Origin: Escherichia coli
GTDB taxonomy: Bacteria; Pseudomonadota; Gammaproteobacteria; Enterobacterales; Enterobacteriaceae
Assembly (NCBI RefSeq): GCF_003790525.1
Contig: NZ_CP033635.1
Reading direction: 5' to 3' (one strand)
DNA: 64,000 bases
This document shows, piece by piece, positions 47,317-47,990 of this stretch. The notes below the pieces were generated by a model. It was not told the origin of the DNA. It searched no databases and saw nothing but the letters and a program-made list of their open reading frames with translations. The first letter of the stretch is position 1, and each line of letters begins with the position of its first letter. The position numbers were made by a program, and so were the translations under genes.

Positions 47317-47883
47317 ATGCTTGAACTTAATGCTAAAACCACCGCGCTGGTGGTGATTGATTTACAAGAAGGCATCTTACCTTTTGCCGGTGGTCCACAT
47401 ACTGCCGATGAGGTGGTTAATCGCGCCGGGAAGCTGGCGGCGAAATTTCGCGCCAGCGGTCAGCCCGTGTTTCTGGTGCGTGTTGGCTGGTCTGCCGATT
47501 ACGCCGAAGCATTAAAACAGCCGGTTGATGCCCCTTCCCCCGCTAAAGTGTTGCCCGAAAATTGGTGGCAACATCCTGTAGCATTAGGTGCAACCGACAG
47601 CGATATCGAAATCATCAAACGTCAATGGGGTGCGTTTTACGGTACGGATCTGGAGTTGCAATTACGCCGCCGGGGTATCGATACCATTGTTTTATGTGGG
47701 ATCTCGACCAATATCGGTGTTGAATCCACCGCCCGCAATGCCTGGGAACTTGGCTTTAATCTGGTGATTGCCGAAGATGCCTGTAGTGCCGCTAGCGCCG
47801 AGCAGCACAATAACAGTATCAACCATATCTACCCGCGCATTGCCCGTGTGCGCTGCGTTGAAGAGATCCTCAACGCATTATGA
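47317..47883 (+). CDS. yecD: Isochorismatase-family hydrolase YecD
   Basis: 188-aa product starting [17 protein letters not shown]. Confidence 0.85.
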
Positions 47884-47990
47884 TTTACATCGGTCTGCCG
47901 CAATGGTCACATCCTAAATGGGTGCGGTTGGGGATCACCAGCCTTGAAGAGTATGCCCGCCACTTTAACTGCGTGATACGGGATTTTTAA
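47880..47990 (+). pseudogene. yecE: 5' fragment of yecE (DUF72) truncated by prophage insertion
   Basis: ATG overlapping the yecD stop encodes [32 protein letters not shown], then diverges and stops after 4 more codons. Confidence 0.6.

Follow-up and report, generated by a model that had tools for sequence, protein, structure and literature searches.

The yecE gene of an Escherichia coli chromosome is interrupted at a φP27-type attachment core next to lambdoid prophage DNA

The DNA which we have analysed is a single stretch of 64,000 nt, which will be called the window. Its left 48 kb are ordinary E. coli chromosome, with zwf, edd, eda, znuACB, ruvAB, ruvC, nudB, aspS and yecD. Several regulatory features are found in this part: the SraC/RyeA and SdsR/RyeB sRNA pair at 19722–19866, a cspA-type thermoregulator leader at 3773–4233 (minus strand) and a LexA-box-like site at 27377–27392. 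The latter is placed between two ORFs, 27067–27357 (minus strand) and 27491–28669 (plus strand), which we take to be yebG and purT. The chromosomal part ends with two features:

47317–47883, plus strand: yecD (isochorismatase-family hydrolase), intact, the last undisturbed chromosomal gene (K-12 annotation)
47880–47990, plus strand: yecE' stub, 32 native codons (47880–47975) followed by four phage-derived codons (IRDF) and TAA (ORF translation compared with YecE)

The ATG of yecE at 47880 overlaps the stop codon of yecD (ATGA, 47880–47883). The 32 codons which follow are identical to residues 1–32 of the intact YecE of SMS-3-5 and K-12; codons 33–36 read IRDF and the frame is closed by TAA at 47988–47990. 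The sequence-only reading had described a frame over the yecD stop with a YecE-like N-terminus, which diverges and stops early, and both parts of this description are borne out. It had also called for an alignment with intact yecE from strains which lack the prophage. In local BLAST the homology ends at 47975 with both SMS-3-5 (one mismatch in the 1,761 bp compared) and K-12 (97.7% identity up to this position). The backbone from 40000 to 47975 is essentially identical to SMS-3-5 and to several other genomes, with about two mismatches in 8 kb with respect to SMS-3-5, as estimated from the bit score. We have searched 5,426 complete E. coli genomes, of which more than 5,000 have an intact yecE, with a query which starts at 47300: among the matches listed, the genomes with an intact yecE match query positions 1–676 (window 47300–47975) and none beyond. 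The 3' 723 bp of yecE are absent, and local BLAST found no other piece of the gene within the 64-kb window.

The same truncated gene is found in many other genomes. The exact 36-aa ORF of the stub is present in 1,348 blocks of public assemblies, and in the three places displayed it is found between yecD and dinI. The junction formed by yecD, yecE' and dinI occurs in 147 of the 5,426 complete genomes. In one of the relatives, TUM1886, the equivalent 96 bp are annotated by PGAP as a pseudogene 'missing C-terminus'.

A chance resemblance is excluded: aspS, yecD and the stub adjoin one another as they do in the chromosome, and phage sequence lies beyond the stub. We have also considered that the stub might be a fossil of yecE carried by the phage, and not the chromosomal gene interrupted in place. 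Such fossils do exist: yecE-derived att sequences are carried inside other prophages, such as the attB in PPompW (PMC8112680), and φ80 has a copy with 87% identity over window positions 47653–48155. However the known fossils are only about 87% identical and contain just 230 bp of yecD, while the stub in the window is joined to complete yecD, aspS, nudB and ruvC, arranged as in the chromosome. Its sequence agrees with the backbone of SMS-3-5 at all positions but one, 47972. We have rejected this explanation, which has practically no probability left. The proposal that a phage has integrated within yecE is upheld: the stub is indeed the 5' end of the chromosomal gene and the adjoining DNA is a lambdoid prophage.

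The attachment region itself comprises the following features:

47965–47975, plus strand: att core TTAACTGCGTG, corresponding to yecE codons 29–32, identical to φP27 attL/attR
47965–47971, plus strand: TTAACTG, putative 7-bp overlap (strand-exchange) region, bounded by T47964 and C47972
47976–48160, plus strand: int-distal attachment-site arm (attR by the φP27 convention), from alignment with related arms
48092–48151, plus strand: five copies, all in the same orientation, of (A/G/T)TG(C/T)CCCA, at 48092, 48103, 48113, 48133 and 48144 (motif search and conservation)

The interruption of yecE falls exactly at the core TTAACTGCGTG, as is found in a φP27-type yecE prophage. The record of φP27 (AJ298298) annotates the same 11-mer, as its reverse complement, for attL (1–11) and attR (42565–42575). 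The position which differs from SMS-3-5 is placed within this core: at 47972 the window has C and SMS-3-5 has T, the sole mismatch in the 1,761 bp compared. XDL, M172-1 and CS5L, which have an empty site in the same backbone, also have T, and again it is the sole mismatch in the 231–235 bp compared. The attP of φP27 has C at the equivalent position. On the other side of the overlap, the window has the host base, T47964, and attP has G. A reciprocal pattern is apparent in TUM1886, where the base is C on the side of yecD and T on the side of int; the int-side junction reads …CGTCATG-TTAACTG-T-GTGGAGGGC.

From these comparisons C47972 is evidently derived from the phage. Since T47964 is specific of the host, the switch from host to phage sequence would lie within the 7 bp TTAACTG, to which we assign the overlap; 7 bp is the known overlap length of lambda-type tyrosine integrases. 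This single-base footprint would narrow the strand-exchange region of the φP27-type integrase family to TTAACTG. The sequence-only reading had placed one prophage end at about 47976: this is correct for the limit of similarity (47975|47976), but the crossover is to be placed a few bases to the left, in 47965–47971. K-12 also has C at 47972, and we have considered that this base might be an ordinary polymorphism of the host. This has been rejected: the four relatives with T differ from the window hardly anywhere else, and the reciprocal arrangement of C and T in TUM1886 also speaks against it.

To the right of the core, the arm of about 190 bp is homologous to the int-distal arm of φP27, with conserved blocks which include the A/T-rich block TTTTAAAAATC at 47985–47995 and the cluster of repeats. 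It also aligns with the arms of TUM1886, of P-EibC (from ECOR-9), of the O145:H28 PPyecE phage (PPyecE_EH1910) and of the fossil copy in φ80. All three exact matches of ATGYCCCA in the 64-kb window are found within 49 bp of this arm. Their total is not above chance (3 found, 4.7 expected in the window); it is their clustering and their conservation across phages which are informative. In both TUM1886 and φP27, two further copies are found in the int-proximal arm, where they fall within the 3' end of int, and the motif ATG(C/T)CCCA is conserved in the IntR-type PPyecE phage as well. The integrase of related lysogens carries the Pfam domain Arm-DNA-bind_2. We consider these repeats as good candidates for the arm-type binding sites of the φP27-type integrase family.

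A different lineage of phages, with an IntR-type integrase and a 21-bp att, also has yecE as a target: the Stx and PPyecE phages of O145:H28. An insertion by this lineage would share several features with what we observe. Both lineages use the central TTAACTG and have the ATG(C/T)CCCA motif in their arms, their integrases are 76% identical, and lambdoid phages are mosaic. The bases of the arm point in another direction: the arm in the window hardly differs from that of TUM1886, a relative in which Int shares 96.8% identity with that of φP27, and it starts with ATACGGG, similar to ACACGGC in φP27, while the IntR-type phage starts with ACGCAAC. We consider that an insertion by the IntR-type lineage is unlikely. 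The enzyme which inserted the prophage is most likely a tyrosine integrase of the φP27 family; its int gene lies outside the window, and we infer the type from the similarity of the arm only.

From 47976 to the end of the window, the matches with PHROG profiles correspond to the int-distal end of a lambdoid prophage, with the following features:

48179–48222, plus strand: two LexA-box-like sites CTGT-N8-ACAG (48179–48194 and 48207–48222), upstream of the dinI-like gene
48238–48486, plus strand: DinI-like gene, the first gene of the prophage (PHROG 189, E 2.8e-27; DinI-like annotation in relatives)
48869–51002, minus strand: prophage cargo of two genes, an HTH protein and an Eib/YadA-like adhesin (PHROG and annotation of relatives)
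48869–49324, minus strand: 151-aa HTH protein (annotation of relatives)
49386–51002, minus strand: 538-aa Eib/YadA-like trimeric autotransporter (PHROG 9547, E 2e-64; YadA C-terminal domain in the annotation of relatives)
51402–64000, minus strand: lambda-like tail module, which runs off the end of the window (PHROG; gene order as in the TUM1886 prophage)
51992–53662, minus strand: side tail fibre gene, with collagen-like Gly-X-Y arrays from 45-bp tandem repeats (52267–52414 and 52705–53197)

Both LexA-box-like sites are placed between a TTGACA hexamer (48173–48178) and the start of the dinI-like gene at 48238, which suggests that this gene is under SOS control; a LexA site is annotated at the homologous position in φ80. 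The gene of the 151-aa HTH protein has no PHROG match. Within the autotransporter gene, a 99-bp tandem repeat (33 aa) occurs 5.6 times with 98% identity, at 49808–50364. The number of copies may be variable, since the versions found in relatives have 505 to 513 aa. This gene has a YadA anchor, is Eib-like and is found near the tail-fibre end of the prophage, in the same position as eibC in AF151674, so that it is of the Eib type; immunoglobulin binding is putative.

The tail genes follow in lambda order, as expected for the int-distal end of a lambdoid prophage: a DUF4376 tail-fibre protein in the position of λ tfa, the side tail fibre, J, I, K, L, M, the tape measure protein, T, G and the major tail protein. 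PHROG matches were obtained for the major tail protein, the tape measure, L, I, J and the tail fibres. No stx gene is found among the genes of the 16-kb part of the prophage contained in the window.

The other end of the prophage can be seen in its relatives. The complete E. coli genomes searched contain no full match to the whole 16-kb prophage part; the best match covers 67% of it. A look-up of the exact tape measure protein gave only three contigs. One contig (L011) is nearly identical to the window, with one mismatch in 5.1 kb, and runs on into head, terminase, lysis and Q genes. Look-ups with its portal protein and with a 130-aa early protein gave unrelated prophages, both proteins being common. 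TUM1886 (NZ_CP128970) has 96.9% identity with the window over 1.4 kb in the junction region. Its prophage has 44.9 kb and ends with xis, a 437-aa int, the stop codon, 18 bp, the core, yecE from codon 30 and yecN. The modules for immunity, replication, Q antitermination and lysis, which are expected in a lambdoid prophage, are found in TUM1886. We have also looked up the predicted GTG-started 3' part of YecE, with the amino-acid sequence of SMS-3-5, and found three contigs (L028, L030 and L031) in which 26 bp separate the gene of a 437-aa integrase from yecE, present from codon 32 onward. These contigs belong to other lineages, since their DNA has 41–103 mismatches in 3 kb with respect to SMS-3-5. 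A junction of int with yecE is found in 506 of the 5,426 complete genomes (601-bp probe, at least 80% covered).

The phage DNA might also be what is left of a decayed prophage, or might have been shaped by a rearrangement or deletion, in which case the 3' part of yecE, the integrase end or both would have been lost with no excisable prophage left. Many of the lambdoid prophages of E. coli are defective (PMC8112680), the distal end lies outside the window, and no genome in the collection has the same complete element. However the tail ORFs have their full length over 16 kb, and L011 continues through the head, terminase, lysis and Q genes. TUM1886, the relative with this junction which was examined in full, retains int, the core and the 3' part of yecE. 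Moreover the genomes with a junction of int and yecE outnumber the 147 which have this type of attR. A remnant is therefore quite improbable. By analogy with these relatives, the distal junction is probably present and the prophage probably complete in this genome.

The part of yecE which remains on each side has a different fate. The stub keeps its native start coupled to yecD and could be translated into a 36-aa peptide. The 3' part lacks the start codon as well as the conserved segment at the N-terminus of the DUF72 fold: the Pfam match of DUF72 begins at residue 21 of YecE, and residues 1–32 align with the N-terminus of a solved DUF72 protein, EF0366 (PDB 1VPY). There is no ATG, GTG or TTG in frame upstream of codon 32 in this 3' part. 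Gene callers place its start either at the GTG of codon 32 or, as PGAP does, at an ATT within the 3' end of int. In TUM1886 (L003, 12797–13567) PGAP annotates the 5'-truncated yecE as an intact 256-aa DUF72 CDS which overlaps int at its end; an artefact of the annotation is the probable explanation. From its sequence, the interrupted gene has likely lost the function of YecE.

Integration may not simply abolish the gene, if a hybrid 3' yecE were translated, for example by coupling to int. The phage arm mimics yecE codons 27–32 and the frame is open across the int-side junction, with TRHVNCV in the phage and ARHFNCV in the host. If this were true, yecE would be a gene controlled by the phage, and excision would be a reversible switch which restores the native gene. 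We give very little credit to this idea, and we consider the loss of YecE function as the likely outcome.

In one assembly with an empty site (contig L029, Logan SRR36207673) yecE has a 1-bp deletion about 20 bp to the left of the core, with GCCGCCACT instead of GCCCGCCACT. The deletion shifts the frame of yecE without any phage; it could be either a real pseudogene or an assembly error.

The features described above can be brought together as follows. An attP with the sequence …CGTCATG-TTAACTG-CGTGAYACGG… would recombine with an attB …CGCCACT-TTAACTG-TGTGGAGGG… inside yecE codons 29–32, and strand exchange would fall within the 7 bp TTAACTG which they share. The attR formed in this way would consist of host yecD and the first 32 codons of yecE, the core, the phage arm, the dinI-like gene, the adhesin cargo and the tail genes. 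By analogy with the relatives, the int-proximal junction, with the integrase, the core, yecE from codon 30 and yecN, should be found to the right of the window, about 29 kb from its end. Its expected sequence is …CGTCATG-TTAACTG-TGTG-GAGGGTAAC…, which would run on as yecE codons 33–272, followed by yecN. The attP of the excised phage should be formed by the int-side arm, TTAACTG and CGTGATACGG.

We conclude that a lambda-like prophage very probably occupies the chromosomal yecE of a backbone similar to SMS-3-5, with its int-distal junction in the window. This is an ordinary case, already known: yecE is a documented phage hot spot. It is a textbook case of a Stx-phage integration site (PMC8065619), it has been described as a hot spot for Stx phages (Nakamura et al., PMC8112680), and it is one of the conserved genes which are disrupted by prophages (Bobay et al., PMC3603311). 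The sequence-only reading had named yecE as a known lambdoid integration site, in agreement with these sources and with the 11-bp attL and attR annotated in the GenBank record of φP27. The record of P-EibC from ECOR-9 already contains the very same junction. The finding holds and is not new. New here are only minor refinements, the mapping of the overlap and the candidate arm sites.

One boundary of the prophage is now fixed, which explains the truncated appearance of yecE in this stretch. For annotation, the 36-aa ORF is best labelled a fragment of a pseudogene, and attR is the proper label for the junction. In pathogenic E. coli, Stx-converting phages and phages which carry effectors have repeatedly landed at this site, and its occupancy by a phage of the Eib type would bear on the entry of such phages at yecE. 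None of these results challenges current understanding.

Finally we compare this prophage with known systems. The Stx1a, Stx2a and PPyecE phages of O145:H28 and the attB of PPompW share the same target position in yecE, TTAACTG, the arm motif and a dinI adjoining the junction (Nakamura et al. 2021, PMC8112680). They differ by the IntR-type integrase (76% identical), the 21-bp att and the bases which directly follow the core. φP27 (AJ298298 / NC_003356), a Stx2e phage inserted in yecE with an 11-bp att, has the same core TTAACTGCGTG and a homologous int-distal arm, including the block TTTTAAAAATC and the (G/A)TG(T/C)CCCA repeats. However φP27 has a tail module with sheath and baseplate and carries stx2e, while in the window the tail is of the lambda type (J/H/V) and the prophage carries dinI and an Eib-like adhesin. 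The integration module is shared and the rest of the genome is not.

P-EibC (AF151674) from E. coli ECOR-9 shows a continuous alignment with window positions 46488–48486 (94.9% identity), which comprises the end of aspS, yecD, the yecE stub, the same junction and dinI. Close to this end, the prophage also has an Eib gene of the YadA-like type and a small HTH ORF. In contrast, the Eib gene itself is only about 73% identical over 240 bp, P-EibC has an additional autotransporter, eaaC, and the 5.6 copies of the 99-bp repeat are a feature of the gene in the window.

The fossil in φ80 (L006, JX871397, positions 2169–2661) contains the last 230 bp of yecD, the 32-codon stub of yecE, the att junction and the arm repeats, and corresponds with 87% identity to window 47653–48155. 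It is annotated as a DUF72 N-terminal pseudogene. It has the appearance of a remnant left by an imprecise excision from yecE, of the same kind as the yecE-derived attB of PPompW; φ80 itself presumably integrates elsewhere.

The general organization is that of λ Int and attP, with an N-terminal arm-binding domain, arm-type repeats on both sides of a short core, a 7-bp overlap and attP directly downstream of int. This layout is well established. The yecE phages differ from λ in the sequences of core and arms, and in their target, here a protein-coding gene interrupted near its 5' end and not rebuilt by the phage. Of their putative arm repeats, two copies are found on the side of int and five on the opposite side.
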